From Ginglymostoma cirratum (lineage: Eukaryota), in NCBI GenBank assembly GCA_024137785.1, contig JAHRHZ010000074.1, forward strand, positions 9,154,004 to 9,218,003: a stretch of 64,000 nucleotides of DNA, written 5' to 3'. The notes beneath the pieces are model-generated. The model worked only from the letters and a program-made list of their open reading frames with translations. It did not search any database and had not been told where the DNA came from. How positions within the stretch are numbered: the stretch's first letter is position 1; each line of letters begins with the position of its first letter. Below are positions 6,913 through 63,604 of this stretch, one piece after another. The translations under genes were made by a program, and so were the position numbers.

Positions 6913-7302
6913 GAGATAAAAGGTACTGCAGATGCTGGAGAATCCGAGATAACAAGCATGGGGCTGGATGAACACAGCAGGTCAAGCAGCATCATAGGAG
7001 CAGGAAAACTTGACTTTTTTTTTATACCGTCCTCCCTGGACTGACCTATCTCCTCCCTACCCCCCTACCTACACTCACCTTTACTGGCTCCATCCCCGCC
7101 TCTTCGACTTGTCTGCCTCCTCTCCACCTATCCTCTCCTCTATCCATCTTCTATCCGCCTCCCCCTCTCTCCCTATTTATTTCAGAACCCACTTCCCCTC
7201 CCCCATTTCTGATGAAGGGTTTAGGCCCGAAACGTCAAGTTTTCCTGCTCCTATGATGCTGCTTGACCTGCTGTGTTCATCCAGCCCCATGCTTGTTATC
7301 TC
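6913..7302. mobile_element. PLE 3'-end insertion with inverted terminal duplication (family 1)
   Basis: 7024-7302 is homologous to the PLE 3' end at 13261-13480. Perfect 69-nt inverted repeat at 6946-7014 / 7234-7302. Flanking direct repeat TCAATATTTTAGAGAT at 6902-6917 and 7301-7316. Confidence 0.88.
7206..7239 (+). ncRNA. Minimal type-I hammerhead ribozyme motif (intact core)
   Basis: ttt-CTGATGA-A-GGGT TTAG GCCC-GAAA-CG-TC-aag: conserved core boxes, stem II, palindromic ACGU in place of helix III, GUC cleavage triplet (7234-7236), short stem I (uuu/aag). Activity not shown. Confidence 0.75.
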
Positions 7303-8679
7303 AATATTTTAGAGATTCTCTAAAAGGTAAGTATTCTTTGTACTCTTCAGTGTATTACGATGCCGTTGCAGACTCGGGTTCAAATCTTGAACTGTCAGCA
7401 TTCTTGATACCAACAATAACAGCAATCAGCCCCTCAGCCCCTTAATTGAGAGAAAAATTGAAAAGCTACACAAGGATTGACTTTCCATGAAGACAATTAA
7501 AACTTAAGTGTGAAATAAATTAAGTTTTGAAATTAGGGTGTAAAACCAAAGAGCAGATAAAAACTGAAGCAATCTTATAAATAATCTTAAATGTACACTG
7601 ATCTTGTGCTATTCTCCCTGCTACTCCACTTGTGCTTGTCCCTTTAAAATGATAGCAGGTCTGAGCAGAACCTGCCTGCTGCATCCAAACATTGGCTAAA
7701 ACATCTTCCCTGGAAGTACTGCACTTAGCTTCAAAGTGCTTCCATTGAAGCTCTCACGATCTGCGTTCTACTTTCACAACTCCCAATGCAGATCAACCAG
7801 ATGCCAGAACACTTGTTTATGCCCATTCAGCACATTTTACATGCACCATTTCATCTTGCATGCTTTCCTTGCGCTAAGTATAGGCCAGTTTTAGAAGCTT
7901 CCAAGGGCTGTTTGTGGCCTTCCTGGATGTAAATTGCCCAACTTTGTACTGAATGGTAATGCAGCAGAGTTTTGCTTTTTCTTGAATGTGGTTATCACCT
8001 GAAACCTTACTAATTAATTAATTGAGATAGTGTTTAGCATGTGAAGAATTATGAATGTAATTTTTTTCTTACTCTAATTTCCTGTTCGATGACAGTGAAT
8101 CACTAAGGACTTTGGGAAGGGTGGAGTTATGGTTAGTGATGGGGCTTGTGGTGAGATGAACCTGCCCGAGGTCTCTACTGTTGATTGTGCCACAGTCTGT
8201 GGAATAAGAGAAGTCTGACTGAGCTCCTCACAAAGCAGAAAATGTAGATAGATTTCACCCTCCGGGTCCTGACCAGGTTAGCGGTTTGTGATATGTAGTG
8301 GATTTTGGACCAACAGTTATCAGGATGGTTTGCATGCCTCAAGTCAATACTCTGAGGCTTCAGAACATTCAAAATTCCCAATGTAAGGAGTTCTTGCTGT
8401 CTATCCCAGATAACAATGATGTTGTTTTGTGGTGGCTATTGCTTCCATCTGGGTTATTTTAATTCAAACTTGGGTTTAAGTATTGCGTTGGTCTCAGGCT
8501 AGCTTGTGATATCTCACTGACCCCCAATCAAGCAGTGATAGAAATATTCAAGAAAAGAAATATTTTTTGGTGGCCTTAAAGTGTTTTTTAAAAAACACTG
8601 TTCGTAGTTGGAATTCATTTAGCTAACTGGTGACATAATCTGCATAAGCACATTGAGTTTTCAGTGTGCTTGTTTAATA

Positions 8680-8990
8680 GCATCATAGCATCATACAGGC
8701 CCTTCAGCCCAACTCATCCATGCCAATCAGGTTTCCTAAACTGACAAATCCTATTTGACTGCATTTGGCCCATACCCCTCTAAACCTTCCTATTCACGTA
8801 CCTGTCCAAATGTCTTTTAAATGTTGTAACTGGACCCACCTCTACCACTTTCTTTTGCAACTTATTCCATATATGCACTCTGTGTGAAAAAGTTGCCCCT
8901 CAGATTCCTTTTAAGTCTTTCCTCTCTCACCTTTAAACTTATTCCCTCTAGCTTTGGACTCCCTTACCCTGATCTATCTATTTAACTATG
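8680..8990 (-). mobile_element. HER1/CR1 LINE 3' tail
   Basis: ACAGGCCCTTCAGCCCAAC..GCATTTGGCCCATA.CCCTCTAAACC; same family as about 30195-30340 and 36240-36625. Confidence 0.7.
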
Positions 8991-9619
8991 AACATCTCAA
9001 ATTTTCTTTAAACTTAATTTTATTAGCTTATTATTCAATTTTAATTGGTTATTATTTTTCAGTGAGTGAACTTCTGGCATTTAAGTTGTTAAAAATCTGA
9101 CCAAATTATTCAAGCTGCAAGATAAGATTGATTGGAATTCTGCTTTAATCTGCAAAATGTTTGTTCGTGTCACAACAAAGATAAAGCTAGATGAAAGTGT
9201 TGTCTTAGTATGTTCTGCACATCCTAATATAGTGCTAGCACTGCTATGAAGTGCTAATTTCTCTATTCAAAATCTGCAATCAGTGTAGTGGTACCCAGTG
9301 TAATGCCGTTTATGAATCAAACCTTTTCATAGTTAAATTTGTGAAAATATATGTGCCATGTTTTATTCAGCTTCTAGCTAATCTTACTTGAATTGTAAAA
9401 TTACTTAATGTATATGTTTTTTGCGCATTTTATTGATGCTGACTACATGGAAGCATGGCAGCTATGGAAACATACCGGTTCTGAAATATTTGTTCTGCAT
9501 TATTTCTGGTGCTGGCTGTGCATATGCCATTTCTGTAAATGTCAGAATGTGCATGGGGAGAAATTTGCTGAATTAAACAAATTAGACAGGTTGAGCAGTC
9601 ATTCTGAAATAATAACTAA

Positions 9620-9800
9620 GTGCTGGAGAAATTCAACAGATTTGACAACATCTGTGTCTAGAGAAACTGATTACTATTTTGAGTTCAAAAAAGAATCAAA
9701 TTGGACCCAGAACCTTAACTCTGTTTCTCTGTCCTCTGATGTTGTTAGACCTGCTGGGTTTCTCCAGTCCTACCTGTTTTTATTTCAGATTTCCAGAACC
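9620..9800. mobile_element. Old, diverged fold-back PLE-terminal element (family 2)
   Basis: Arms GCTGGAGAAATTCAACAGATTTGACAACATC... and ...GATGTTGTTAGACCTGCTGGGTTTCTCCAG are imperfect reverse complements; resembles 25516-25735. Confidence 0.6.
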
Positions 9801-9974
9801 CATTGTGCATTGTTGCACAAGGGAAGTCACAAACTGTGTATTCCAAAACAGCTGAGTACATTTCATTTTCTCTTGGCAGAGAGAGTGAAGTAGAACGTAA
9901 ACATGGTTCATAGGATTGCTGTCTTCCATTCTCTGCACAAATGGCAGATTGCAGGTGTAGCATATCAACTAAGA

Positions 9975-10890
9975 TGTACTGCAAAAGAAAGGGGTCCAGC
10001 TGCTATGTGACCATACACTTTGTATCATGTAGGTCCAGTCTCAATATCATGGCAATTACTGTTTTGCCTTTTATCTGTAATAGTCTGGCATGCCAGCTGC
10101 ATTTGTATTTCCGAAACAAACCGGAGAATAAACACTGGTTGCCGAGGGCTGATGGTGTGGATCTAGACTGTCATGCAGAATCCACCCTACGATGGGCAGC
10201 ATGACGTATGCCCTGTTGCCATACAAGATGCGACCAGGTACACCATTTGGTGCTTAAACCACTGTTTTGTCAGCTAAACTGCCTTGGGTGAGCTGTATGC
10301 TGTATGTTGGAGGACAAGCTATTGGGCTACTCCTAACACCCTGCATGCCTCTTTGAACACTGATAGCACACTGCCATCATGGCTATGGGTGAGCTTGCGT
10401 AACTAAAATCTGAGCTTTACAGTGCATTGTTCAGATGTTGGCTGATTTCTGTTGGTGTTACAGTGGAAAATGAGACATTGGATACTGCATTTTGGCTAGA
10501 TGCAAAATGTTCTCAGAAAGTTGACCAATACTTGCACGCTGACAGTGATGAGGTTGACATGCTCCAAAGTCCTGTGCCAAGCTGTTGCTGAACACTGCTG
10601 TACTGCTTGATCTTGATCATCGACCTGCCAGTACACCAAGTGTTTCAGTGGATGAACATTAGCCTCCTGAGGGTTTACCTTTTGGTAAGCTTATGTCTGT
10701 ACTGATGTGCTGCCCTGCAGGCGCCTTATGATGTCTCACCACATGCAAATCTCACTTGTAAGCTATCTTCCCAAAATAGTGCCAGCTTTTGAGTTGATGG
10801 GTGAATGTGTGAGCAAAAGATGGTATTGTTTCTCCATTGTCTTCATGTGTCTTCTACAACTGGCTAAGTTTCAGCTTTGGGTGAAAGGAT
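9975..10890 (-). mobile_element. Possible RTE-clade LINE relic
   Basis: The minus strand gives decayed coding-like fragments (KIKQY..; NFLRTFCI; WQQGIRHAAHRR) reminiscent of the RTE RT C-terminus; heavily degenerate. Confidence 0.3.
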
Positions 10891-11323
10891 GAGTCTGAAA
10901 AGGAAATTTAAAAGGAATACACACCTAATCAAATTGTAGATTTAACTACAACCAAGAAACCGGAAATAAAAACTGCTATGAATGCATGGGAGGTGAATGA
11001 GTTAGATGAGAGATATTTATCGAAAAATAAAGTAATTGATTTTTCACCAAATGATAGAGCTAAACCCATAAATATATTAAGAGGCACAGAAGCTATTCAA
11101 ACTTTTGCTGGAGAAGGATCTGGTTTTCCTGCTTCCCAACAGAATAAAATGAAAGCAGAAGTGTTATTAAGCAGGATAAGTGAAGAGTATATCCTAGTAC
11201 CATTATTAATAGTGAAGTTAGAGTGTGACTTGTTATCCGGAGCTGTGAAAAGTAGAAGTAGTAAGCAGTTACGTATGCTCCAGGAAATGATTTGGCTGGA
11301 ATAAAAGTTAAAACTTCATCTTA

Positions 11324-13480
11324 CTTCGCGCTTACTTCTTTAACCGTGAGCCTAACCCTCCCTCTACTGACTTCTTCTCCCGCCTCCAACACACTCCCTC
11401 CCCCCGGACACCACCCCGAGGCCTCCTACCCTCCCTCAACCTCTTCATCACCAACTGTCATTGTGACATCAATCGCCTCAACCTCTCCACCACTCTCACC
11501 CACTCCAACCTCTCCCCCACAGAACGTGCAGCCCTCCACTCCAATCCAAACCTCACCATGAAACCTGCGGACAAGGGAGGCGCAGTTGTAGTATGGCGCA
11601 CTGACCTCTACATCGCCGAGGCCAGGCGCCAACTCTCCGACACCACCTCCTACCGCCCCCTTGATCATGACCCCACCCTCGACCCCGAAACCACCATCTC
11701 TCAGACCATCTACAACCTCATCACCTCAGGTGACCTCCCACCCACAGCCTCCAACCTCATCGTTCCCCAACCCCGCACCGCCCACTTCTATCTCCTTCCC
11801 AAAATCCACAAACCTGACTGCCCTGGTCAACCCATTGTCTCTGCCTGCTCCTACCCCCACCGAACTTATCTCCATTTATCTCGACTCCATTTTCTCCGCC
11901 TTGGTCCAGGAACTCCCTCCCTACGTCCGCGACACCACCCACACCCTCCACCTCCTCCTTCAAAACTTCCAAGTCCCCGGTCCCCAACACACCATCTTTA
12001 CCATGGACGTCCAGTCACTATACACCTGCATTCCCCATCCAAATGGCCTAAAGGGCCTCCGCCTCTTCCTGTCCAGCAGGCCCGACCAGTCCCCCTCCAC
12101 TGACACCCTCATCCGCTTAGCCAAACTCGTCCTCACCCTCAACCACTTCCCTTTCAATTCCTCTCACTTCCTACAGACAAAGGGGGTGGCCATGGGTACC
12201 TGCCTGGGCCCAAGCTATGCCTCCCTCTTTATAGGTTATGTGGAACAATCCCTCTTCCGTAGCTACACTGGCCCTAAACCCCACCTCTTCCTCTGTTACA
12301 TTGACTGTATCGGCCCCGCCTCATGCTCCCATGAGGAGCTCGAACAGTTCATCCACTTCACCAACACCTTCCACCCCAACCTTAAGTTCACCTGGACCAT
12401 CTCTGTTACCTCTCTCTCCTTCCTGGATCCCTCTATTTCCATCTCCGGCAATCACCTGGAAAGCGACATCCATTTCTCCCACAGCTACCTAGAATACACC
12501 TCCTCCCACCCAACTTCCAGCAAAAATGCCATCCCCTATTCCCAATTCCTTCGCCTCCGCTGCATCTGCTCCCAGAATGAGGCATTCCACTCCCATTCAT
12601 CTCAGGCGTCCTCGTTTTTCAAGGACCACAACTTCTCCCCTTCAGTGGTCAAGAATGCCCTCGATCGTGTCTCCCGCGTTTCCCGCAACTCATCCTTCAC
12701 ACCCTCTCCCCGCAATAACAACCAAAACAGAATCCCCCTCGTCCTCACGTTCCACCCCACCAACCTCCGGATCGAACGCATCGTCCTCTGACACTTCCGC
12801 CATCTGCAATCCGACCCCACCACCAAAGACATTTTTCCCTCCCCACCCTTATCTGCTTTCCGGAGGGACCACTCTCTCTGGGACTCCCTTGTCCGCGGAG
12901 GCTTGGGGACCGCTTTGCAGAACACCTACGCTCAGTTCGCACTAAACAACTACACCTCCCAGTTGCGAACCATTTCAACTCCCCCTCCCATTCCTCAGAC
13001 GACATGTCCATCCTGGGCCTCCTGCAGTGCCACAACGATGCCACCTGAAGGTTGCAGGGACAGCAACTTATATTCATTCCACTTGGGAACCCTGCAGCCC
13101 AATGGTATCAATGTGGACTTCACAAGCTTCAAAATCTCCCCTCCCCCAACCGCATCCCAAAACCAGCCCAACTTGTCCCTGCATCCCTAACCTGTCCTTC
13201 CTCCCACCTATCCCCTCCTCCCACCTCAAGCCCCACCCCCATCTCCTACCTACCAACCTCATACCGCCCCCTGGACTGACCTATCTCCTCCCTAACTCCC
13301 CACCTACACTCCCCTTTACTGCCTCCATCCCCACCTCTTTGACCTGTCTGTCTCCTCTCCTTCTATCTGCCTCCCCCTCCCCCATTTATGATGAAGGGTC
13401 TAGGCCCAAAATGTCAGCCTTCCTGCTCCTATGATGCTGCTTGGCCTGCTGTGTTCATCCAGCTCTACGCCTTGTTATCT
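11324..13480 (+). mobile_element. Penelope-like retroelement, 5'-truncated and inactive (RT + C-terminal half of GIY-YIG + 3' terminal repeat unit)
   Basis: PLE RT motifs KPADKGGAVVVW, FYLLPKIHKP...PIVS, MDVQSLYTCIP, KGVAMGT, YID-CIG, SQFLRLRCICS. Endonuclease tail RRLGDRFAEHLRS...PVANHFN...GTLQPNGIN. Frameshift near 11850, in-frame TGA stops, very C-rich strand. Confidence 0.93.
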
Positions 13481-13879
13481 AAGAATTAGTAGTTACTATT
13501 CTAAGCACACTGACACTCACAGCACAACTGAACCTGAAAGAAAAACCTTTCAATAGACAATCGCTAGGCAAAAGTTAACTTAGCACACCCACGGAACTCT
13601 ATCTGCAAATTTTCAATTGAAAGGAGATAGTGAAAGGCGTAAATTCTCAACCGGCGCATGAAAGACACCATCAGTATGTAAACAACATTGTCTTATCAGC
13701 AAAGAACTGAAGGAGACTTAACAGGGTGGATGCTGAGAGGATGCTCTTGTGGCTGCCTAGAACCATGGGCACAATTTTAAAAAATTGTCTCTCCCATTTG
13801 AGATAGAGATTTGTTTGTCTCCTCTGAAGGTTACAAACAAGAGTAGGCCATTTGAACCTTCTAGCCTGGTCTGCCAATC

Positions 13880-25515: not shown

Positions 25516-25735
25516 AAAAACAGAAAGAACTGCGGATGCTGTAAATCAGGAACAAAAACAGAAACTGCTGGAAAAACTCAGTAGGTCTGGCAGCATCTGT
25601 GAAGAAAAAAATCAGTTAACGTTTTGGGTCCTTCTGAGGAAGGATCACCGGACCCGAAACATTAACTTTGATTTTTTTTCTTCACAGATGCTGCCAGACC
25701 TGCTGAGCTTTTCCAGCAACTTCTGGTTTTGTCCC
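25516..25735. mobile_element. Fold-back PLE-terminal element (family 2) with hammerhead motif, inserted in a CR1 endonuclease region
   Basis: About 80-nt inverted arms at 25552-25631 / 25650-25732. CTGAGGA-A-GGATC ACCG GACCC-GAAA-CA-TT at 25634-25663. 14-bp direct repeat TAATATCCTTGAAT at 25502-25515 and 25736-25749. Confidence 0.88.
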
Positions 25736-28069: not shown

Positions 28070-29780
28070 ACTTACTTGATTACGACGCAGGAGGAGGCTG
28101 TTTGGCCAATTTTGCCTGCAAAGGCCCATCAAATGAGCATTATTACCTAGTGCCAATCTCCTACATTTTCCCTATACCTTTGCACATTATTTTTATCCAA
28201 ATAATCATCGAATGCCCTTTTGACTGCCTAAAGTGAGTCTGCCTGCGCCACTTCCAGGCATTTGCCTTCCGTATCCTAAACACCTCGCCTCACCCTTGCT
28301 TCTTTTGCAGGTTACTTTAAACGTACTTGTTCATTTTATGAGTAGGAACAGTTTCTTCTTGGCCACTGTATCCTGCCCTCTCGTGATTTTGAAAACCTCT
28401 ATCAGATTTCCTCTTAGTTGTCTTCTCTCCAAGAAGAATAGTCCCAAGTTCTCCTATCTGTCCTCATAACTGAAATTCCTCATCCCTGGAACCATTCTTG
28501 GAAACAGTTTTTGAGCTTTCTCCAATACTTCCATATTCTTCCTAAAGTGTGGCACGCAAAACTATACAGAGCACCCCAGCTGAGGTCTAGCAAGTGCCTT
28601 ATACAAGTTGACATCACCTCCTTGTTCATGTACTCTATGCCCTTTATTAATAAGGCTAAGGTTACTGTTTGCTTACTGCTCTCTCGACCTGTCCTGCCAA
28701 TATCAATGATCTGCGTACCCATGCACCCGGGTCCCTTTGCTCCTGCACCGCATTAGAATTGTACTCCCTGTTTTATATTGTTTTTCAATATTCTTCCTAC
28801 TAAAAGTGCCTCTGCGTTGAATCTCATCTGTCACTTAACTGACTACACCACCAGCTTGCCTACGCTCATCTGGAGTTTTATACTGTCTTCCACCATTTAC
28901 AGCTTTTTCAAGTCTTGGGTCATCTGCAAACTTTGAAATTGTCACCTGCACCCAAAATCTAGATGTTTAGTATATGTCAGGAAATACGATCCATTGCTGG
29001 GTAACCCTATTACAAACATCCCTGCAGCCTGAAAAAATCCATTAGCCACTACTGGTAACACAGTATGGAGTTGGAGGAACACAGCGGGCCGGGCAGCATC
29101 AGAAGAGCAGGAAAGTTGATGTTTTTGGTCAGCACCCTTATGAAGCTGTTCCTCCAGCTCCATACTATGTTATCTCTGCCTGCAGCATCTGCTGTTCTTG
29201 TTAGCTCTCATTAACCATCACTGTACTCTCCTTTTTTTCTCCCCCTATCACCTCAGCCAATTTTGTATCCATGTTTTGGTCCGTTTCATTCCATCACTTA
29301 AAACTTTCCTCACAAGTCTGTTGTATGGCACAGTAGCAAAGGTTTTCTAGAAGTTCATGTTATACCACATCAACAGCATTACCCTCCAAGCCTTTCTGTT
29401 ACATCTTTAAATAAAATTCTAGCAAGTTCTGTATTCCCCTTTAAAAATCTGTGCTGGTTTTCCTTAATCACCCATCTTTTTTCATATGACTGCTAACGCT
29501 ATCCAGATAATTGTGTTTAGAAGCTCAAAGTTAAACTGACTGGTCTGTAATTGCTAGGGTTATCCTTGCAATCTTTCTTGAACAAAACAATTTTCCAGTT
29601 TTCTGGCACCTCCCCCAAGTCAAGGGAAGACTGAAAGATTATGGCCAGTGCTCTGCAATTTTCACTTGCGCCTCCTTCAGTATCCTTGGATATATCTCTT
29701 CCAATGTCAGTGCCTTGTCAACCTCCAGTACCAATAGTCTATCCAGTACTTCTTTGTTATCAATTTTGAATCTTTCCACT
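28070..29780 (-). mobile_element. CR1 LINE 3' half
   Basis: KGIEYMNKEVM, KFADDPRL, NYRPVSL motifs on the minus strand; CR1 tail at about 28085. Confidence 0.75.
29056..29209. mobile_element. Fold-back PLE-terminal element (family 1-like, diverged, internally deleted)
   Basis: TAACACAGTATGGAGTTGGAGGAACA vs TGTTCCTCCAGCTCCATACTATGTTA. Degenerate 15-bp flanking repeat CATTAGCCACTACTG / CATTAACCATCACTG. Confidence 0.72.
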
Positions 29781-30757: not shown

Positions 30758-31308
30758 GAGATAACAAGGTGTAGAGCTGGATGAACACAGCAGGCCAGGC
30801 AGCATCAGAGGAGCAGNNNNNNNNNNNNNNNNNNNNNNNNNNNNNNNNNNNNNNNNNNNNNNNNNNNNNNNNNNNNNNNNNNNNNNNNNNNNNNNNNNNN
30901 NNNNNNNNNNNNNNNNNNNNNNNNNNNNNNNNNNNNNNNNNNNNNNNNNNNNNNNNNNNNNNNNNNNNNNNNNNNNNNNNNNNNNNNNNNNNNNNNNNNN
31001 NNNNNNNNNNNNNNNNNNNNNNNNNNNNNNNNNNNNNNNNNNNNNNNNNNNNNNNNNNNNNNNNNNNNNNNNNNNNNNNNNNNNNNNNNNNNNNNNNNNN
31101 NNNNNNNNNNNNNNNNNNNNNNNNNNNNNNNNNNNNNNNNNNNNNNNNNNNNNNNNNNNNNNNNNNNNNNNNNNNNNNNNNNNNNNNNNNNNNNNNNNNN
31201 NNNNNNNNNNNNNNNNCTGCTCCTCTGATGCTGCCTGGCCTGCTGTGTTCATCCAGCTCTACACCTTGTTATCTCAGATTCTCCAGCATCGGCAGTTCCT
31301 ACTATCTC
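30758..31308. mobile_element. Fold-back PLE-terminal element (family 1) whose centre is an assembly gap
   Basis: 30758-30816 is the exact reverse complement of 31217-31275; the right arm continues into the terminal tail ...GCAGTTCCTACTATCTC. Confidence 0.8.
30817..31216. other. Assembly gap (400 N)
   Basis: Run of N. Confidence 1.
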
Positions 31309-40604: not shown

Positions 40605-40688
40605 TTTCTGAGGAAGGGTCATTTGACCTGAAGCGTTGACTCTGATTTCTCTCTGCAGATGCTGCCAGACCTGCTGAGCTTTTCCAGC
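40605..40688 (+). mobile_element. Solo PLE-terminal unit (family 2) with decayed hammerhead motif
   Basis: ttt-CTGAGGA-A-GGGTC ATTT GACCT-GAAG-CG-TT followed by CAGATGCTGCCAGACCTGCTGAGCTTTTCCAGC, as in 25685-25717. Confidence 0.75.
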
Positions 40689-40702
40689 GAGTGCACACTA
40701 TT

Positions 40703-43965: not shown

Positions 43966-44048
43966 GAGATAACAAGGTGTAGAGCTGGATGAACACAGCA
44001 GGCCGAGCAGGAAAGCTGACGTTTTGGGCCTAGACCCTTCATCAGAAA
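43966..44048 (-). mobile_element. Solo PLE-terminal unit (family 1) with hammerhead motif (GAAA mutated to AAAA)
   Basis: GAGATAACAAGG...GGGCCTAGACCCTTCATCAGAAA. 15-bp flanking repeat TACACAGTATTTGAG (43954-43968) / TACACCGTATTTGAG (44049-44063). Confidence 0.85.
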
Positions 44049-45165
44049 TACACCGTATTTGAGGTGTTTTCACCAAAAACTGAATTACAACATCCTTGCG
44101 TTTATGTTAAATTTCTCCTTGAGAAAGGATAGCATCCTATTACCTTTTCTTGATTACACGCTGTACTTGCATACTAGCCTTGTGCTCCTCATGTACTAGA
44201 ACACCTAAATTCCACTCCACCTTGAGATTCTGCAGTTGTTTAAGTAATACTCTGCTTTTTAATTTTTCCTATCAAAGTGAACAACTTCACGTTTTCCTAC
44301 ATTATACTCCATGTGCCAGGTTCTTGCTCACTCACTTGGCCTATCTCTCCGTCTGGATCCACTTTGTCTTGCTCGCAGTGTACTTTTCTACCTATCTTGA
44401 CATCATCTACGAATTTAGCAGGCCTTTGTTCCTTTAATTTAAGTCATTTCCATAATTGTAAGAAGCTGAGGCCTCAATGCAAAGTCTTGCAGGATTCTGG
44501 TCATCACATCCTACCAATCAGAAATGGCCCATTTATACATCCTATAAAGTTCATACCTTTTTATTTCCTCATTTTTGACTGTGAACTAAAAGAAGATACT
44601 GCTGTGAACTGAGGACGCTATGCAAAGAATGGCTGCAATTTTTAAAAAAAATTACTCAAGCTCATTGTGAGTTATGTTCAATGTTGCAATACGTTAGTTA
44701 CATGTGGTGTTTCCTTTGAAAGCATCATTCTGATTCTCTCTAGTTACCATGAGTTTTTCTTAGTGCATAGTTATAATCTCCTAAATTGATTCCAACGCCT
44801 TCCCGACAACAGTCCTATAGTTTCCTGTTTTACATCCTCGCCCCCTCTTCAAATAATGGAGTATTATTTGCTACTTGCCACTCTGATGGAACCTTTCCTG
44901 AATCAAGGGCATTTTGGGAAATGAAGATCAATGCATGAAATCCATGTGGACCAGAGACTTGAGGCTTTATTGCTTCCCTCATCATTGCAATTTCACGAAG
45001 TTCCTCTCTCTTTTCCACCTGCTGATTTACAGCTGTTACTGGAATGTTTTTGTTTCCTCTAAAGCGAAGAAATAAGCGAAGTATTTGTTCTGCCATACCT
45101 TATTATCTAATTTTGAACTCCCCATTCTCCCACTGCCAGTCTGGCAATCACTTTACCATTTTTGT

Positions 45166-45382
45166 CTGCAGATGCTGGAAACTGAAAAATCAGAAACTTT
45201 TGCCAAACCGGCTGGGTTTTTTCAGCATCTGTGGAGAAGAAAGCACAGTTAACGTTTCACGTCCAGTGACCCTCCTTTGGATCAGTTCTGAAGGAGGGTC
45301 ACTGGAGTCAACATTAACCCTACTTTCCCTTCATAGATGCTGCCAGACCTGCTGAGTTTCTCTAGCAATTTGTTTTTTGTTT
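45166..45382. mobile_element. Fold-back PLE-terminal element (family 2) with two decayed back-to-back hammerhead motifs
   Basis: AACGTTTC..TCCAGTGACCCTCCTT / AAGGAGGGTCACTGGA inner arms; outer arms CAGCATCTGTGGAG / TTCATAGATGCTG. Confidence 0.75.
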
Positions 45383-45613
45383 CCTTTTTAAATACGTCTA
45401 GAAATTCTTGCAGTGTCATTTCACATTGCTAAATAGCTTTCTCTCATGCTCTGATTTCTTTCTCTTGATTAACTGTTTGCCATTCTCTCCATTTCTTTAT
45501 ATTCTTGCCAATCACATGACTTGTCATTCATCATCATGCAGTTATATGCTTTTTCCTTGAGTTTGACGCTTTCCCTAACATTTTGAGGATGGCAAGTCCT
45601 CCCTTCAGAATGT

Positions 45614-46050
45614 AAACAAAAAAAAAACGCTTGAGAAATACAGCAGGTCTGGCAGCATCTATGGAGAGAGAAAATGAGTTAAGGTTTTGAGTTCAATGGC
45701 TCTTCTCTGGAACTGAAGATGTCTTCATGCTGTTGACAAAGATGGAGGGGGAGCAGGTGGAACAAAGCGCAAAACAAATGGAGGTGCTTTTGGAAGTAAA
45801 GGAGAAATTAGACGTCAAATAATTAAGGATAGATGTAAATAGTCGAAAATACATGATCTATGCTGACACTAAACCAGTCATAGCAAGACATTTAGAGAGT
45901 GGGTTGTAATTGAAATGGAGAGCCATGTTCATCCTCTGAAGTTGTTGAGTTCTGAAGGCTATAAAGTACATGAGTGGAAAATGGGGGGGCTGTTCCTTTA
46001 GCTTGAATTGGGCTTCGTAGGAACACTGAAGCAGGCCTAGGATGGAAATG
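45614..46050 (-). mobile_element. 3' fragment of a second PLE lineage (GIY-YIG C-terminus + family-2 terminal unit)
   Basis: The minus strand of about 45925-46050 reads ISILGLLQCSYEAQFKLKEQP-/-IFHSCTL*PSELNNF, homologous to MSILGLLQCHNDAT*RLQGQQLIF..GTLQPNGIN of the 11.3 kb PLE. It ends in the family-2 arm at 45614-45718. Confidence 0.7.
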
Positions 46051-46437
46051 TTTCACAGTAAGGACTGTATGATTCTGTGATCTTATGTGGACATACACAC
46101 CAAGGTCCCCCTGATCTCCAGTACTTTCCAGAGTTCTACCTTTCACAGTGTGATCTCTTGTGTTGTTGGCTGTCCAACTGCATTACTTTAACTTTTCTGG
46201 TTTGAATTCCATTTGCCACTGCTCTATACAGCTGGTTAGTTTTACCAAATCTTATATAACCTTCTGACTGGTTGTTTCCAAAATGTACCCTTAGAATCTA
46301 CTTCAAAAGTATTCGATGAACTTCTCCGTCAGGCTATTCCTGCCAATTTTCCAATTTACACGTCGATTAAAATCATATTGCAAGCTCTTTATTACAATTG
46401 TCATGACCATGGATCATTACCTCAGATCAACTATAGA

Positions 46438-46918
46438 GTCTTCCTTTTGTCCTGTTTCTTTGACTGGCATGCTGGTTTGTACCACTCATAGCAAGAGAGT
46501 TCTTTACCTGTGTCTGAGGGGTGATTAATGCATGAACTCTAAATTCCATCATGTGTTTTTAAAAGAGGACTGCTCCAGCTAAACAAATGACTGTCGATAT
46601 GAGTTCGTTGGTTGTTGACAGAGGAACCCTGTAATATCATATCTGTTGAGACATCAAGGATGCCTGGAAGAGATGGACTTAAAAGGGGGAAAATGCAGTA
46701 TGAACTGAACTGTAATCTCCTGGAGTTATCTCGGACTGAATGTGATGGGAGAAGAGTCTGAAGCCTGTGTCCTGGCCTTTTTTTTTAGCATAAGTATGCT
46801 GTGAAAATCACAGTAAAAGAACCACGCATTAATCACCCCTCAGTCATAGGTAAAGAACTCTCTTGCTATGAGTGCTCAAACCAGCATGCCAGTCAAAGAA
46901 ACAGGACAAAAGGAAGAC
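46438..46918. repeat. About 93-bp inverted repeat (46438-46531 / 46826-46918) with a 294-bp spacer
   Basis: GTCTTCCTTTTGTCCTGTTTCTTTGACTGGCATGCTGGTTTG...GGTGATTAATGC is the near-perfect reverse complement of the second arm (about 4 differences). Confidence 0.9.
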
Positions 46919-48381
46919 CCTTTCTCTGGTGGCTGGCTGGCAGCCACCATCCAAAAGGATTTCAACTGAACCGAAATCAGAAAGCAAAATCAATTCAAAC
47001 GGTCCATAAAAACTGATTTCTACGTTTTCATCTCTTCTGGGACTCACTTCTCATTTTTAGTCTCATTTTTAGTGTGTGTGTGTGTTGCGTGATTTAGTTA
47101 TTTGCCTTCTTAGTAATGAATAAACTCTTTTGTTAATCCATGGAAGCCGAGATAAATCAGCTACTTTTAAAACACAAATTCATTTGGTCTGGGAGAAATG
47201 TGCTCGAGAGGGGATCCTTGGTAAGTTAACTTTGAAACCAGTGGAGGGAGTAGGTGATAAAAGAAGGACAGTTTGTTCCTACTCATCTAGGAGTTTGACA
47301 GTTTGGGTTAGAACCTCTGAAATGTAATAACTTGTGTAACTTCATTTGGTCCTGGCACCCAATGTTTCCTCTTATACATTTAGTCCCATGCCAAAAGGAA
47401 CAATAAAGAAAGGGTGCAGATATAAAGGAATATGCAAAAGAAGCAAAGGGTAATGTGAGGAAAAACATCTATTCTACTCAGCTATGGGTATGGAATGTAG
47501 TGCCTGGAAATATAGTAGAAGTGGTTTCAGTTCAGGCTTTCAAAAGGACATTGCATGATTATTTGGATAGAAATAGTGTGCAAGGCAGGAGGTTGGCATG
47601 AGGTAATGCTGCTTTTTTGAAGAACTGATGCAGGCACAATGGGCTGAATGGCCTCCTTCTGCACCATAGTTACATATTTCTGTGATATTAAGTTTGTCAT
47701 TAGAGGGGCTGTAGACTACTTCCAGAAGTGACGTTTCCACCGTGTTCCTTATGTCTACCCAAAGCAGTTCTATGTCCTGACATCCTGAGGCAATGTCATC
47801 TCTAACTATTGTTCAAATGCAATCCTTAATTAGCAGTGCTATTTTCAGTCTTTACATAGCTTCCTCATATGCCCTGACCCAATCTTTGCCATGCTGCAGC
47901 CACGTTTCTGTAGCAGCTTATTTACTTCAAAGTAAACAAACTGTTATGAATACTACATGCATTCAGATGCAGAGCCTTTAAGTTTTGTCTTTTTGTTGTC
48001 CTTGTAATATGTAGTCCTGGTTGTTGTTGTAATCCTAGATTTCTCTAACCCTTATTTCCTATATTACTATTTTCACCTCCCACCTTGTCTCCGCTCTTCC
48101 CTATACCACTGCTGCCTACCTTTTATCCCTTTACTCCACTTTTGTTTGTTTATGATGTTATGGTTGTATTGGAATGACCTAGCAACAAATTAAATTTTGT
48201 TTTCTTTAATTTCATATAAAGCATGTGTACTTACAAGCATTACATCACTAACTTGTGTCCCTCCTTAAGTCCAATACTGTAAAATTATTTCAAACACATG
48301 TTTTGAGGTCTAGCATGTTGTTTCTGGTGTTGCTTTTCCTTGCAGTAGTATACACTAGTCTTACCATTCTTTTCTTCTCAG

Positions 48382-54316: not shown

Positions 54317-54384
54317 GTGATTGAAGTGAGAAGCAAAGAAGCATCCTATCTTTTGCCTGAATACATCTGCAGAGAAAAGTATGG
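54317..54384 (+). CDS. EFR3A: EFR3A exon 11 in window (68 nt): VIEVRSKEASYLLPEYICREKY(G)
   Basis: cttttccaAG / GTAAAT; VIE.R..EA.Y.LPE.I.R.K motif. Confidence 0.93.
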
Positions 54385-55224
54385 GTAAATATGTTACTTT
54401 ATAAATTAGTCTTTTGTCCATTTTGATCAATGAAAGTTGTGTTTTGTGGGGCCTCGTTAATCTATCCAAATCTTGATTTTAATACTCAATTCAAATGTAA
54501 AATCGATAATGGTAGAACTGTGTTCAATGTTCAGGGAATTAACTGTGCAGTGTCGTGAAAATAAGGCAAGAAATTGTGCTTGCCTGTAGGCTTTGAGCAA
54601 ATAAGGTAATATTGTATGAAATTATTCATGTACTTCAATAATAGAATTAATCCTGAAGTTCAGAATTTCATTGAAATAGCTATATTTGGATTAATTTCAT
54701 ATATGTATGCATGTTTTGTTTAATTGACCTAATGACCAAATGTATTAGTCAAAGATTACAAACATAGAAAACTACTGGGCTTGGTAGAATGATCAGCTTG
54801 TCTTTTGCTGTACCATGCTGTTGCATTATAATTCAGCACCCTGATGCTTCCACCTATCAGAAAGAGAATTCTTTCATGGAGGAGTTTTTAATACAAAAAA
54901 ATTCCTGAGCCACTTCAAGAAAAAGAATTTTGAGAAATTCTAATTTCACTGTGAAAGGTGATCAGAAAAAGTTCCAAGTGAGCATAATGACCAAGATAAA
55001 TCATCCATTGATCCATCTATTTTTTATTTGGAGTGTCCCTGGTCCTTATGAAAGATTTTCCATCTATGAGTTTGCAGAAAATTTGCAGTTGTGGCAAGGC
55101 CGAGCATTTTGCAGAAGATAAATTGATCTGATGAACAGCAAAAAAGACCGTCTCACGTCTAACTTAATTCTGTGTTTGTGTATCTTGTATGCCACGTCAC
55201 ATCAATTCTCTGGCTTTTTTTCTT

Positions 55225-55590
55225 TATTCTTTCATGGCAAACGGCTGCTAGCAAAGTCAGCATTTGTTGCCTGCCCCCCATTGCTCTTGCACTAACTAAC
55301 TAGCTAGGGCAGTTGAGGGTGGTTAAGAGCCAACCACATTGGTATAGGTCTGGTGTTGCATGGAGGCCAGATCAGGTAAAGACAGCCGGTTCCCTCCCAC
55401 AAAGAACATTAGTCACCAAGAAATAACTGTTAATTATTCACTGCCACAAAGACTAGCTGTCAATTACGCATTTATTCAATAAATTCAAATTCCACCATTT
55501 TACCATGGTGGGATTTGAGCCAGTATCTTCGGAACATTAGCCTGGGCCTCTGACCTAGTAGACATATGACGTTATCAGTTTGCCACTGTC
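55225..55590 (-). mobile_element. SINE of a multi-copy family (other copies at about 33385-33570, 50665-50925, 58105-58430)
   Basis: Shared block CAGCATTTGTTGCC..TTGC.CTTG..GGCAGTT.AG..TCAACCACATT..GGAGTCACAT..CAGA.CAGGTAA; tRNA-like box GGTGGGATTTGA.CC near 55507. Confidence 0.65.
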
Positions 55591-57681: not shown

Positions 57682-57809
57682 ATTACCCAAAACCCTGGAG
57701 ATACAAGACAAAAGCTGTCTTTTCTTGCAAAACAAGATTGCAGATGCGCTGGCTGGCAGTGGCTACAGTGTGGATAGACTGTCGGTGCCTTATGTACCCC
57801 AGCCTACAG
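57682..57809 (+). CDS. EFR3A: EFR3A exon 12 in window (128 nt): (G)LPKTLEIQDKSCLFLQNKIADALAGSGYSVDRLSVPYVPQPT
   Basis: taatAG / GTAAGA; GSGYSV.RLSVPYVPQ.T motif. The next exon was not seen before 64000. Confidence 0.95.
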
Positions 57810-58863
57810 GTAAGAGTGCAATTGCTTCAAACTGTAGAAAATGCAAACGTAAGTGGTAGTGATAAAAGCATTATGACAATATCATGAAGCTTGCTTCTAC
57901 AATGAATCATTCATTTACAGCTACTTTTACTTGAGCTTCTGATATAAAGGCAATAAAACATCTTTTCTATTTTTTTGCAACAGATGAAACAAATTCCAGA
58001 TGTTGTTTTTCAAGTCATAAGCTCCCAATAATGAATCATATTTTCAAGCAGGTTGCACAAAGTAGTTGGAAAAGCCACATTTTTTCCCACAAGGGTTTAT
58101 TTTGTTTATGTGATGTGAGCAGTGCTAACAAGACCAACATTTGTTTCCCACATGTAATTGCCCTTGAATCGAGTGGCTCGCTCTGGCCATTTCAGAACAC
58201 AGTTAACATTCAGCCACATTGCTTTGGACCTGGAATCACATGTAAGCAAATTTCCTTCCCCATGGAAATTAGTGACAATCAATCATGGTTTCACATTCAC
58301 CATAACTGAGACTAAATCTAGAACTGAAAATTAGTCAATTGAATTTAAATCCCACCAGCTACCTTAATGGGATGTGAACCAATGACCCCACTTCATTTGC
58401 TTGTGCCTCTACCACTGTAGCACCATCTCCACTTAGTGAGTGACTGGTAGAAATGCAGAATTCTAATGCTAAGTCAGTAAATTTATTTTATTTAGCAATT
58501 TGTGCCATGATGATGTGAAAAGGTGCTCACTATGTTGCAGATTGACACTTAATGGACATACAATCTAATTCAGAATTAGAATTAGTTTCATTGTCACAAA
58601 GAACCTGAGTACAAATCTTAGGTACAAAAATAGAGAAATAAAGAGAAAAGCTAAAAGTTCTACATTACATTTCTTCATAGTGTAAATTAGGAAGATAAAA
58701 TTTTTTTAAAAATGTTAGTCTTTCTGTAGCCTGCAGTCTCTTCATGCTGTGGACTTTGCACATGTGGTCTCATTTTCCCTGCACTACCAGGCTTGAGATC
58801 TCAACAGGCTGACCGCACCGGGCCCCAGTGAACCAGCCAACCCCTATGGGTTTCAACAAGCAG

Positions 58864-59070
58864 GAGATAGTAAGGACTGCAGATGCTGGAAGTCAGAGTC
58901 AATAAAATGTGGAGCTGGAGGAGCACAACAGGTCAGACGACATCTAACAAACAGGAAAGTCGACATTTTGGATCTGGACCCTTCATCAGGTTCAGACCTG
59001 AAACGTCGATTTTTGCTGTTACTGAGATGCTGTCTGACCTGCTGCACTCCTCCAGCTCCACATTTTATTG
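58864..59070. mobile_element. Fold-back PLE-terminal element (divergent family 1 variant)
   Basis: Starts GAGATAGTAAGGACTGCAGATGCTGGA. Arms CAATAAAATGTGGAGCTGGAGGAG / CTCCTCCAGCTCCACATTTTATTG. Minus-strand CTGATGAAGGGTCCAGATCC-AAAA-TG-TC at 58962-58989. Confidence 0.82.
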
Positions 59071-59269
59071 TCCCCGGCCGGCCGTCCCCGCTCCACGCTG
59101 GGCCCTCGGCTGCTGCAGTGCCTCTGATCTCTTGAGAAGCCAAAGTAGATTGAAAAAAACACTAAAAAATTTTAAAAATGACAATATGAACCAAACGGAA
59201 AGGATGAGACTGGAATATTGCCTACTCTGCCACTGACAGATTACCCACAAAATGTTGCCCTCAATTAGA

Positions 59270-59590
59270 AGTATAATACCAAGAAATGCTACACTGTCAG
59301 AGGCACTGTCTCTTGGACAAGACTTTCTCTGCTTGTAAAGTGACCTATGGCACTATTTAAAGAAGGGAAGGGGTGTTAATTTGACTGCAAGAATAATATT
59401 TCTCATGCCAGCACCACTAATTCAGGTCATCTGATTATTTATCTTGAAGCTAATTGTGGAACATTTTCATAAATTGACTCTCTTAGTTGCACTACATTGC
59501 AATGGTAAGTTCACTTCGAATGTATGACACTAACTGAAATAATTTGGCATGGCCTTACGCTTGGCAGAGGGCTATATAACTGCAAACATA
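59270..59590 (+). mobile_element. Deu-domain (SacSINE1-like) SINE, decayed
   Basis: TGCTACACTGTCAGAGG..CC.ATGGCACTATTT.AAGAAG..CTACATT.CAA..GCTATATAA.TGCAA motif order. Confidence 0.5.
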
Positions 59591-59709
59591 CTCTGACTTC
59601 TCCTTCCCATTTCTCTTTCTTTTCCCTCTCCACTCTAGTTAACTGATTTGTCTTTTTGGTGTAGATCTGCTCAGGTCCCGGAACAGAGACCATAAGCCCT
59701 TGTGTGTTA

Positions 59710-59807
59710 GAGATAACAAGGTGTGGAGCTGGATGAACACAGCAGGCCAAGCAGCATCACAGGAGCAGGAAAGCTTGACGTTTCGGGCCTAGACCCTTCA
59801 TCAGAAA
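59710..59807 (-). mobile_element. Solo PLE-terminal unit (family 1)
   Basis: GAGATAACAAGG...TTCATCAGAAA; same end points as 43966-44048. Confidence 0.85.
59774..59807 (-). ncRNA. Minimal type-I hammerhead ribozyme motif (intact core, antisense to the host gene)
   Basis: The reverse complement reads ttt-CTGATGA-A-GGGT CTAG GCCC-GAAA-CG-TC-aag. Confidence 0.75.
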
Positions 59808-60299
59808 CCTGTTTCTGGGCCTCACTTCCCCAGCCCCTTTAATCCTCCTCTCGCATCTCAGATCTACGGCCTATAATGATACTTGAGTCGAAGTGTCTAT
59901 GTAGGTTTAGCAAAACCTATTGGTTTTTGTTCTCTATTCCCCTCTCTATAAAGCCCATCAAAAGCTCAGGTTTCATTGTGATACACTTTACAACCACAAC
60001 ATTGTCAGACATTTGCACACAATTTGATCATTAATATTATGGAACCAGCTCCATTTCTTAGAACCTGGACCTGTGCAATATCCAAAGAGTAGCATTCACT
60101 GTGGTTTTGTTAACAGATAATTTACTCTTTGTATTGACCAATAAATGTTTTCTTCAAGCAAAACTAAAACACATGTTTGGTCATCACCCCATCAAGAAAG
60201 AGGTCAGGCCGCTGACAGGGCACCATCGGCAGGCACCCACATGACATTTTGTAGATGGGAGAGTGTGAAGGGTCTTGTCAGAAAGTGGATTTGGGGATA

Positions 60300-62375
60300 G
60301 AGCCTTTCAGTTAGACCATGGCTGATCATCTGTGTTGATACAGGTATAGCATGTGACGGTTGCATCTCTGGATGTCATTTGTATTTGGAAGTCTTTCAAT
60401 TTTTGTCTTCATACTGAATTATTGAGCTTCCACATCCCTCTGGGATAGAAAATCCTGAGATTTATTAGCTTCTAAATGAAGAAATTCCTCATCATCTCAG
60501 TCTTAAATGGGCTACCTCTTTTCTGACGCTAAGTCCCGTGGTTCCCCAGTCAGGGAAACATCCTGTCTACATCCACTTGGTAAGAATTTATAAATTTCAG
60601 TGCAGTCACTTTTCATTCTTCAAAACCCTGGAGGGTGCAGCCCCAATTTCTTCCATCCCTCTTCGTAAAATTATTCTGCCATCCCAGGGATTAATTGAGT
60701 GAACCTTCCCTGCTCTCACTATTGTTAAGTATATCATCCTTGGATAAGGAGACTAAAACTGTACGCAGTGCTTGAAGTGCAAGTTCACCGAGGCTCGATA
60801 CGATCTTAGCAAGACAACTTTACTCCTGTACTCGAGTCCTGTTGCAGTGAAGATCAGCACACCATTTGCTGCCTTACTTGTTTTCTGCATTAGTATGCTA
60901 GCTTTTCGTAATTCATGAGGAAGGGCACCTGGGTCTGTTTAGACATCAACACTCTTGAACCTTGAGATTTAAAAAAAATCTTGTCTCTTTCTGTTTTTCC
61001 ATGGATAACTTTATACTTGCATTTACTATCATTTTCCATGTCCTTAACGATTCAGTTAGCCTGGCCAAGCCCCCATGAACCTCCCCCTTGCATCCTTCTC
61101 ACAACTTAGATTTCTATATAGTTTTATGTAACAGCAAGTTTAGAAATATTATATGTGCTCCCCATATCCAAATCATTTATGTAGATTGTGAATAGCCTTG
61201 GCCCCAGCATTGATCCTTTTGATGCACGCTAGTAATATTATGTCATTTATTCTTATTCTGTCTATTGTTAGTTAAACAATGCTCTGTCCATACTAATTAT
61301 TGCTCCTAATTCCATATGTTTCACATACAAGGAGCTATCAGCATGGCTTACCATTGAGAGAGCAAGTCAAGTCAAGGAAAAGGGCCTGGAGGTGGGAGAG
61401 TGGGTGGTGTGATGAAAGAGCAATCGGCCAACATGGGACATTGAGGGAGAATATGAGGACCAACTCTGAGCCTAAGGAAGGCTAGAAAATCGTAACCAGT
61501 GCCTCTGCAGTTTTATTTCCCGTCCTCCTCATTACCCTCGAATGCCACTCATCCGGTCCTGGTACCGTATCAACTTTAAGGTGCGACGGTCTATTCAATA
61601 CCTCCATTTATCAATTTTAAAACTTCACGTGTCTGAATTACTTCCTTTTTCACCGTGCGCTGGCAGCACCTTTCTTGGTAAAGACAGATGCAAAGGGCTG
61701 AATCTTGCATTTTTTTTCTGGTTAAGTCACGTTCTGTTGAGGTGTTATCATTGATGCATGTGAATTCTTATGTCCTATCTTACCAAACTCTCCTCATTAA
61801 TTACCTACCATGCACGTGGCATCTCTCGTCCAATTTCCATCCCATCTTTTTGAGCACCATACTAACAACAACTCATCTACCCAATGAACATCCCGGAATT
61901 CATAAGCCCATAAGAAACTGAAGCACACCATTCAGCCCATCAAGTCTGCTGTGCCATTCGATGAGATCATGGCTGATGTTCACTTTCAGGTTCCCAATAA
62001 TAATCCATTCCTTTACTGATGAAAAATCTGTTTATCTCTGCCTTGTCTATACTTAACCCAGTATGTTTAGACTTCTGTAGTAAAGAATTGTACAAATTGA
62101 TTACCCTTTAAGAGAAGAAATTCCCCCACATCTGTCTTAAATGTGCAGCTTCTTATTCTGAGATTACGTCTGCTGGTCCTGGACTCTCCTATGAGGGGAA
62201 ACAATTTTGCCACATCTAACCTATCAAGCCCCCTAAGAATCTTGTACATTTCAATAAGATTGCCGCTCATTCTTTTAAACTGCAATGAGTACAGGCCCAA
62301 CCTATTCAACCTCTCATCATAAGATAGCCCTCCATACCTAGATCAGCCTAGTAAATGTTCTCTGGACTGTCCCAA
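60300..62375 (-). mobile_element. CR1 LINE fragments
   Basis: LNRLGLYSLQFKRMSGNLIEMYKILRGLDRLD (62067-62309) and further RT remnants. Confidence 0.75.
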
Positions 62376-63390
62376 GGTGTGAGGTGAGAGTAAATTGATA
62401 AAATGGCATTCTATTTATTAATGAAGTATGTTGTGGTGTTAATGATGTGTTTAACAAGCAATAATGACCATCCAATGGCATCTTGCTATTGCCTAGCACA
62501 AAGATCGCCACGCTTATTGTGAAAAGTATCAAAGATATGGAGCAAGGTCATCTTGACGTAGAGATGAGCTTCACTGCACTTGTCGCCCAAATCTGCCACA
62601 CGTCCACCTGAGCCTACGTATGAATCCACCCAAAGTGTTTACGTAATATCTCCGCTTTGCCTCCATGTACATGTCCTCTTTGGTTCCTCATCAGCCCCAT
62701 TCCTCCTCCTGCCATCATTTTACTATATGAAATCACACAATTTGAAGCAGTCTTTTCTCTATGGAATAACACAGCAGCCTGTTCATTAAAGATGTCATTG
62801 GTGATTTAGACAATAGACATTGGGGTACAGGAGTAGGCCATTCGGCCCTTCAAGCTAGCACCACCATTCATTATGATCATGGCTGATCATCTAGTATTGC
62901 TTACTTAAAAGGGTAGCTGATCAGTTTGGTAATTTCAAAAGCTTCAAGCTTCCATTTGGTTTGAAGTATTCTATCTGAGAAAAGATACTTGCTTGGTCAT
63001 ATTGATTAACTATAATGCATTAACATAACCATAATGAGTATCTTTTCCTATATACAGTACTTACAAAGTGCATACAAATGTGTCCTTCCTATTCATTGTT
63101 CCTTTCTATTTTTTTTAACACTTATTATGACTCTTCTCTGACTTATCTCTTGCATTTAGTCCACAACCAGCTTTTTCCTTCACGATAACCCAAGCATAAG
63201 TGCAGGCGGAAATCAAGAGGTAAACGTTGGCTTAGATAGAGCTGCATCATGTAAAAAGACATGGATGCACCTGAGTGATAAATATTAGCTCACTTGGTTG
63301 CTGCTTTTACAGTAGTTAATAGACTTTCACAAAACAAAATCCCCAAAAGCTACAGATGTTAGCTCAAAAGCCAAAGGCATAGTTGTGCCA

Positions 63391-63604
63391 GAGATAGTAG
63401 GAACTGCAGATGCTGGAGAATCTGAGATAACAGGGTGTAGACCTAGATGAACACAGCAGGCCAAGCAGTATCAGGGGAGCAGGGAGGCTGATGTTTCAGG
63501 CCTAGACCCTCCTTCAGAAATTTCTGAAGAAGCTTCTAGGCCTGAAACGTCAGCCTCCCTGCTCCTCTGACGCTGCTTGGCCTGCTGTGTTCGTCCAGCT
63601 CTAC
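63391..63604. mobile_element. Spacer-less palindromic PLE-terminal element (family 1) with two back-to-back hammerhead motifs
   Basis: Symmetry axis CTTCAGAAA|TTTCTGAAG at 63520/63521, arms about 84 nt. Perfect 15-bp direct repeat GGCATAGTTGTGCCA at 63376-63390 and 63605-63619. Confidence 0.9.

Follow-up and report, generated by a model that had tools for sequence, protein, structure and literature searches.

Endonuclease-bearing (EN+) Penelope-like elements (PLEs) are found as insertions with a head-to-head inverted copy, a tail of 30-40 bp on one side, a target-site duplication (TSD) and a truncated 5' end, to which partial tandems, an open reading frame (ORF) for a reverse transcriptase (RT) plus GIY-YIG endonuclease and a pseudo-long terminal repeat (pLTR) with the first codons can be added (PMC3846280, PMC8557442, PMC2377424). 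Very short PLE insertions with a median length of 128 bp have been described in Chlamydomonas (PMC9977147), and the origin of the inverted repeats and tails of PLEs is stated to be open (PMC8557442). Here, we examined a window of 64,000 nucleotides, which is the whole stretch of Ginglymostoma cirratum DNA presented above, in which an earlier note had listed twelve short insertions. Self-comparison and motif scans identified the 3'-terminal unit of two PLE families at all twelve sites, and most are inverted duplications, as the note had stated, with eight arranged head-to-head and four present as single arms. These insertions share the features of the EN+ PLE insertions listed above, but differ from them in that the ORF-free minimal form dominates, that a tail-bearing (T) arm is nearly always joined to a tail-less (N) arm at all insertion sizes, and that there is one common 5' edge. 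We consider it probable that these stubs are the shortest size class of endonuclease-bearing PLE insertions, and that each was assembled anew from two separately primed cDNAs.

In the anole Poseidon element PAc, studied in vitro, both target strands undergo cutting and extension, the tail is bounded by two internal RT start sites, the targets lean towards AT, and a minimal hammerhead ribozyme is located at the junction between the pLTR and the ORF, with cleavage by the hammerhead being dispensable for insertion (PMC11167929). The shark insertions resemble this system in these respects, whereas family 1 has a Cys-rich linker between the RT and the endonuclease, and T arms are paired with N arms here, often with an overlap of 2-6 nt, as compared to the absence of a start-site difference between strands and of priming homology reported for the anole element. 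The hammerheads are like the minimal motifs of PLE pLTRs (PMC4209133), with CUGANGA, an extra base before helix II, a 4-bp helix II with a G-C base, GAAA, a palindromic ACGU for helix III and a short helix I, but in the fold-backs analyzed here the motif is predicted to be sequestered. Non-LTR retrozymes are also non-coding, hammerhead-bearing, related to PLE pLTRs and dispersed as monomers, but they are direct tandem repeats expressed as circles (PMC7229834; bioRxiv 10.64898/2026.07.22.740005), whereas the elements in this study are inverted or single. No direct tandem hammerhead arrays were identified in the window, and none of the 10 same-strand neighbours among the 392 arms in our larger sample is an array, for which reason an identity as retrozymes was rejected. 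In L1 twin priming, the second target strand primes on the RNA, which results in an inversion. The inverted piece is then a non-overlapping upstream part, in contrast to the stubs, in which both arms copy the same segment.

Outer ends and pairing of the arms

Positions in the terminal unit were counted from C3 of the hammerhead box CUGANGA as +1, with no zero. The unit begins at about -4, includes the hammerhead and what are presumed to be the initial ORF codons, and ends at either +93/94 (the N end) or +128/129 (the T end, with the 34-nt tail); the distance from the N end to the T end is 34 nt, and the tail is about 34-35 nt long. The census sample consisted of 1,269,872 readable bases in 19 blocks from the 4.36-Gb genome, and all copy counts rest on these 1.27 Mb, with RT-selected loci added for the analysis of long pairs. 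Profile searches recovered 392 arms in 317 insertions, corresponding to 1 per 4.0 kb overall and to 1 per 3.9 kb if the home contig is left aside, and 75 of the insertions are short head-to-head pairs, here called fold-backs, with a median length of 202 bp. The earlier note had estimated about one copy per 5 kb for the palindromic element; the density of 1 per 4 kb refers to all forms taken together, and that of the fold-backs proper is about 1 per 17 kb. Provided that the sample is typical, the genome contains about 1.1 million units and 0.26 million fold-backs; the terminal units make up about 4% of the sampled DNA. The reversed-sequence control gave no matches for family 1 and 1 weak match for family 2, as compared to 359 and 386 raw matches in the real search, which also took in 29 extra loci, and the arms are therefore not chance matches. 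Short-range neighbours were head-to-head in 75 cases, tail-to-tail in 2 and on the same strand in 10, and 31 of the 242 single arms adjoin N or the end of a block.

The 65 short pairs that could be classified at both 3' ends (10 of the 75 could not) comprise 57 T+N, 5 T+T and 3 N+N pairs (p=1.6e-10 against 0.5). When inspected by eye, the eight exceptions turned out to be three alignment overruns, three cases of mirrored flanks or duplicated pieces that resemble assembly artefacts, one family-1/family-2 neighbour pair without a TSD, and one that is unexplained. All 14 classifiable long pairs were T+N (5 of 19 were unclassifiable), and micro-arms of 9-28 nt were of the class opposite to their partner in 7 of 7 classifiable cases, the search for such arms having given 8 matches in 105 unpaired arms at a control rate of 0.6%. 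Public contigs from four runs have loose ends at positions 3960/3961 (+129/128) and 3994-3996 (+95 to +93) of the reference copy L129 in all four. The outer ends are thus strongly non-random, in line with the shared end points of the earlier note and not with random truncation of PLEs. The arm that extends further upstream was the T arm in 21, the N arm in 29 and neither in 7 of the 57 short T+N pairs, and the T arm in 6 and the N arm in 9 of 15 long pairs; either arm is thus the longer one about equally often, a pattern that could not be produced by folding back and copying a single cDNA. In several public contigs, a T end is joined to an N end on the opposite strand (L129:3960-3995), which is a tail-to-tail arrangement absent from the true pairs of the census sample.

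Direct repeats with a score of at least 8 flank 36 of the 75 fold-backs, as compared to 0.3% in the control, and were also found at 22 of 173 short singles, for which the control rate was 0.2%. These TSDs are mostly 11-15 bp long, with a range of 8-16 bp, and their GC content of 0.37, as compared to 0.415, indicates AT-leaning targets.

The 5' ends are concentrated at one edge. Among the 361 arm starts that do not adjoin N, 112 are located at -7 to -1, 11 at -15 to -8, 31 at -250 to -16, 39 further upstream, 15 at +28 to +33 and 35 at +34 to +60, such that the density is 16 per nt in the interval -7 to -1 and 0.13 per nt in the interval -250 to -16. Singles with a TSD start at -9 to -1 in 15 of 22 cases. 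In the raw junctions of both families, the edge is at -5 to -2, which is the 5' strand of helix I, and the sequence of the long copies around the A at -4 is CCATTTC in family 1 and TCAGTTC in family 2, which matches the initiator consensus YYANWYY. We also selected 20 copies for carrying the 5' ORF body, from 40 matches of which 20 were listed: 3 start at -4/-3 (p=5e-5), 3 at +4 to +9 (p=4e-6), 4 at +48 to about +107 and 2 in the body. For three of the four public runs, the listed loose ends include L129 position 4091 (-3). An extra G at -5, as would be derived from a cap, was not seen in the raw junctions. No clear peak of DNA ends was found at the ribozyme cut site, with one start at +29 in family 1 and none at +31 in family 2. 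The 10 family-1 starts at +28 to +33 were rejected as candidate ends at the cut site, being spread out and open to CpG-driven alignment trimming, and so were the loose ends at +29 in public contigs, which are produced by a 1-nt subfamily indel.

The inverted pLTR and the one-sided tail have been published before. Neither the T+N pairing rule nor the 5' edge was found in print, and searches of literature outside subscription journals returned no statement of the rule, of the -4 edge or of such repeats in sharks.

Proposed assembly of the stubs and rival explanations

The small insertions originate from PLEs and were retro-mobilised, as proposed in the earlier note, with arms that are PLE 3'-terminal units and ends at RT start sites. 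The suggestion that a palindrome of about 200 nt propagates as a non-autonomous unit was not borne out. The 75 fold-back junctions represent 73 types, the repeated ones being a symmetric -3/-3 form and a probable assembly duplicate, and extra bases are present between the arms in 50 of them. In neither family does any of 96 columns distinguish T from N arms at p<0.01. The layout of the fold-backs is also found in kilobase-long PLE insertions, the arms of which join at unrelated positions kilobases apart. Short and long family-1 arms differ at 11 of 97 columns, which reflects the subfamily mix, the long set being enriched for RT-selected loci. Fold-backs, solos and longer copies were found in every one of the six subfamilies with at least 10 members. 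A master's junction together with private mutations in its copies, as for a non-autonomous PLE, was not found among the fold-backs. A miniature inverted-repeat transposable element (MITE) was rejected on the basis of the asymmetric T and N ends, the variable centres and the TSDs of 8-16 bp.

The two arms of an insertion are related to each other. Their similarity is 0.84, as compared to 0.78 for random arms, rare shared variants are five times more frequent than in the null, and the arms agree in subfamily in 26 of 28 cases (null mean 12) and 16 of 20 cases (null mean 8.4). In 12 long pairs, 12 pair-only variants were observed against 0.6 expected, with 6 from one pair, and the partner arm is the single best match in only 6 and 3 of 69. 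One pair joins family 1 with family 2, without a TSD. A primer-template overlap of at least 2 nt was scored at 21 of 35 non-negative junctions, as compared to 18% expected, with a scoring that allows mismatches and overstates the overlap; 21 further junctions were negative and 12 of 68 were unscored.

In the proposed mechanism, the mRNA would begin at the initiator-like motif, at about -4, and the RT-endonuclease, probably as a dimer, would nick both target strands 11-15 nt apart. Each 3'-OH would prime reverse transcription internally, one at each start site, and often with a primer-template match of 2-6 nt. With priming at start sites just 3' of the 5' end of the mRNA, both cDNAs would run off after at most 100-130 nt, and end-joining of the two cDNA 3' ends, with a few bases lost or gained, would give a fold-back. 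A solo may result if the second arm fails, and long forms if priming occurs at a downstream tandem copy. The geometry, the ends, the TSDs and the continuity with long PLE insertions are directly visible in the DNA; we infer the use of one start site per strand, the run-off at the -4 5' end of the mRNA and the joining of the cDNA ends.

Alternatively, antisense RNA or the first cDNA could fold at the palindrome and be copied, with the endonuclease trimming one end to leave the tail on one side. Such self-priming, for which an antisense-RNA fold-back has been proposed (PMC3846280), would account directly for arms that share subfamily and private variants, and two centres are perfect palindromes, -3/-3 without a gap. 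We nevertheless regard it as unlikely, since it predicts a fixed relation between the tail and the longer arm, which is contradicted by the ratios of 21:29 and 6:9 in short and long pairs, and since it fits poorly with the extra bases at 50 of 75 junctions and with long pairs joined kilobases apart. The 5' edge could also be a site of RNA processing or of RT arrest, such as a splice acceptor, a protein-bound hammerhead that blocks the RT, or another cut. Family 2 has CAG at -5 to -3, the edge coincides with helix I in both families, and the intron of Penelope in D. virilis ends at the 5' end of helix I (PMC4209133). Family 1, however, has no AG at the edge, the G at -3 is kept in 47 of 70 family-2 short arms, there is no common upstream exon, and an RT halted by structure should have stopped at the 3' side of a helix, with no clear peak at the hammerhead cut site, all of which makes this explanation improbable as well.

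It is also conceivable that a palindrome of about 200 nt, or a short solo resembling a short interspersed nuclear element (SINE), serves as a master, with its transcript being copied in one piece by the PLE protein. The high copy number and the fixed ends agree with this idea, as does one family-2 subfamily in which about 90% of the copies (54 of 60) are short; non-autonomous PLEs are known (PMC8557442), and later deletions could scramble the centres. We find it quite improbable in view of the 73 junction types, the lack of sites that distinguish T from N arms, and the longer copies in all six of the larger subfamilies. In addition, both outer ends are located at RT start sites, which is not what a single priming event would give, and a stub is without the post-tail sequence required by the anole protein (PMC11167929). 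These arguments are weaker against a solo master than against a palindromic master.

Several observations weigh against assembly anew from two cDNAs that run off at -4. The sample is non-random and about a quarter of the requested bases are N, and 39 of 75 fold-backs have no scorable TSD. The varied junctions and the shared variants could partly have arisen after insertion, by palindrome deletion and conversion. As many as 110 of 361 arm starts are at +1 to +27, for which trimming or later deletion is needed, and both arms reach +1 or further in only 7 of 57 T+N pairs. The putative start of the mRNA at -4 was read from the ends of genomic copies and of public contigs, and the initiator consensus that it matches is short. 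Among the copies with 5' ORF body, 8 of 20 reach upstream of -90, and read-through or tandem RNAs must therefore also have been used. Finally, no difference in start site between the strands was seen in the anole PLE assay (PMC11167929).

Window insertions, hammerheads and source elements

Head-to-head sites in the window are 6913, 9620 (old), 25516, 29056, 45166, 58864, 63391 and 30758, and single arms are located at 40605, 43966, 59710 and 63977. The insertions and their source element are as follows.

6913..7302, family-1 head-to-head insertion with a TSD; tail-bearing arm 6913-7018 (minus strand), tail-less arm 7027-7302 (plus strand, to -182)
7209 (C3), intact minimal hammerhead of the 6913..7302 insertion; predicted cut after 7236
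9594..9808, old family-2 fold-back (site 9620); core decayed
11312..13481, plus strand, family-1 PLE, 5'-truncated and frameshifted; RT region, and an endonuclease part that is internally deleted
25516..25730, family-2 fold-back; tail-bearing left arm from +17, right arm from -2, TSD of at least 12 bp
29056..29206, older family-1 fold-back; left arm tail-less, right arm short and tail-bearing; TSD degenerate and below the score cut-off
30758..31308, family-1 head-to-head insertion; left end tail-less, right end tail-bearing, centre of 400 N (30817-31216)
40605..40689, plus strand, family-2 single arm; start at -2
43966..44049, minus strand, family-1 single arm; start at -3/-4, tail-less, TSD of about 12 bp by eye
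45166..45383, family-2 fold-back
45614..45953, minus strand, old family-2 3' end plus upstream pLTR; absent from the list in the earlier note
58864..59074, older family-1 fold-back; left arm tail-bearing
59710..59807, minus strand, family-1 single arm from -3 to +94; intact core with C3 at 59804, cleavage predicted after 59777
63391..63604, family-1 fold-back; both arms from -3, centre at 63520/63521, tail on the left, exact 15-bp TSD
63977..64000, plus strand, family-1 single arm without core; extends about 40 bp beyond the end of the window

The 400-N gap at 30817-31216 is situated between two inverted arms, and the flanks of three pairs close to gaps are mirrored or duplicated, which suggests that PLE palindromes break assemblies.

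A loose scan of the window for CTGANGA...GAAA gave matches at 7209, 25634, 63524 and 59804, of which only those at 7209 and 59804 have the full motif with an intact helix II; the match at 25634 has CATT for CGTT, and helix II is decayed at 63524. The core boxes and helices of a minimal type-I hammerhead with a palindrome in place of helix III are present, as the earlier note had recognized, but the fold-backs do not have one central motif; rather, each arm has its own copy at its inner end. One of the two cores is usually cut short: a single intact core was found in 18 of 75 fold-backs and in 57 of all 317 insertions, and two in none. The pairing of helix II is retained in 85-97% of copies; wobble and compensatory substitutions occur, among them a change from G-C to A-U in 27 family-2 copies, and helix I has 2 bp in family 1 and 4 bp in family 2. 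Core boxes vary between subfamilies at N7 only, which together with the retention of helix II points to selection on the source elements. In the copies, the rate of core-box substitutions was lower in two of six comparisons (p=0.006, 0.009) and not in the other four, a comparison that is biased by the required alignment through the core. A search in Rfam gave no match to a hammerhead family and only sub-threshold matches to miRNAs.

In transcripts of the fold-backs, the motif is located inside a predicted hairpin of -95 to -168 kcal/mol, and the predicted pair probability of helix II is 0.00-0.01 in three fold-backs and 0.7, 0.14, 0.03 and 0.0 in four isolated arms; single arms thus fold unreliably in the model. 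Cofolding predicts that the palindromes can pair between molecules, and a single fold-back transcript cannot form the dimer, since its two cores are on opposite strands. The hammerhead would then be a passenger in the stubs, kept between source subfamilies, decaying in the copies and, by the folding model, buried in the hairpin.

Family 1 corresponds to the 3' end of the PLE at 11312-13481, in which the terminal unit is tail-less and has a mutated core, and family 2 is a related family. Arms are contiguous with RT/GIY-YIG-encoding ORFs such as that of L132, a better-preserved relative with matches to RVT_1 (E=5e-6) and GIY-YIG (E=0.002), both under the Pfam cut-offs. This ORF contains a Cys-rich, zinc-finger-like linker, C-x3-K-C-x2-C, between the RT and the endonuclease, and such a linker is a criterion of the Neptune clade that is shared with Nematis (PMC8557442). 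Judged by this linker, family 1 appears to be Neptune/Nematis-like, and an assignment to the Poseidon clade was dropped. Family 2 is also present with several hundred bases of common upstream sequence, and the coding evidence seen consists of a 3' end that resembles the C-terminus of the endonuclease. L129 is a natural partial tandem with a unit of 3455 bp, in which the tail continues straight into the element body and an ATG at +47 opens a frame; the same arrangement, with the tail as the start of the body, is found in most of the loci L204-L223. The insertions are those of an EN+ PLE by their link to RT/GIY-YIG, the partial tandem and the inverted copy with one-sided tail and TSD. A protein search of the genome gave 96,719 first-look candidates, which is not a copy number. 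At 3798 codons, the open frame that holds one RT match (G000:C50:1620085-1621233) greatly exceeds the 3.45-kb unit, and is possibly an in-frame tandem array or an artefact.

Family-2 arms in the window (25655-25700, 40630-40660, 45300-45335) combine a TTAAC that resembles a branch point with a pyrimidine tract and a YAG immediately 5' of the ATG, with CAGATG in 71 of 165 family-2 arms. The putative branch point shares positions with both the cut site of the hammerhead and helix I. With this layout, every family-2 solo in sense orientation may serve as a cryptic splice acceptor within the host intron that carries it. In family 1, a long pyrimidine tract that ends in TTTCAG is found about 30 nt 5' of the hammerhead (window positions 7170-7185, and long copies); this may be the acceptor site of an intron in the pLTR, and the ends of family-1 copies do not accumulate there.

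The window is located inside an EFR3 gene, which the earlier note had named as EFR3A, with a match to EFR3_ARM about 27 kb upstream on the plus strand, and a second EFR3 paralogue is present on another contig of the assembly. Other features in the window are as follows.

2657..2791, plus strand, probable EFR3 exon; open frame, with the EFR3_ARM match upstream
10912-11304, open frame of 130 codons directly 5' of the truncated PLE; no Pfam match
46435-46921, separate inverted repeat unrelated to the PLE unit; 100-bp arms, 94% identical, about 290 bp apart

We regard the frame at 2657..2791 as probably an EFR3 exon; its 44-aa piece had no match in searches of Pfam and PDB.

Implications for PLE integration

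The elements themselves are not a new class, but the two quantitative rules bear on how PLEs integrate, and both T+N pairing and the edge at -4 provide precise predictions for the in vitro PLE system (PMC11167929). Repeat pipelines could mislabel the stubs as MITEs or miRNA hairpins, in keeping with the sub-threshold Rfam matches, and the fold-backs place hairpins of 70-100 bp into introns. More tentatively, and with somewhat less than even confidence, we suggest that the roughly 1 million stubs are a fossil read-out of PLE integration by a dimer on one mRNA, with one start site per target strand and run-off from a transcript that starts exactly at helix I. If so, the "optional" tail would be the obligate half of every PLE insertion, and full-length copying would require a tandem or ribozyme-circularised RNA, which would give the hammerhead a job.

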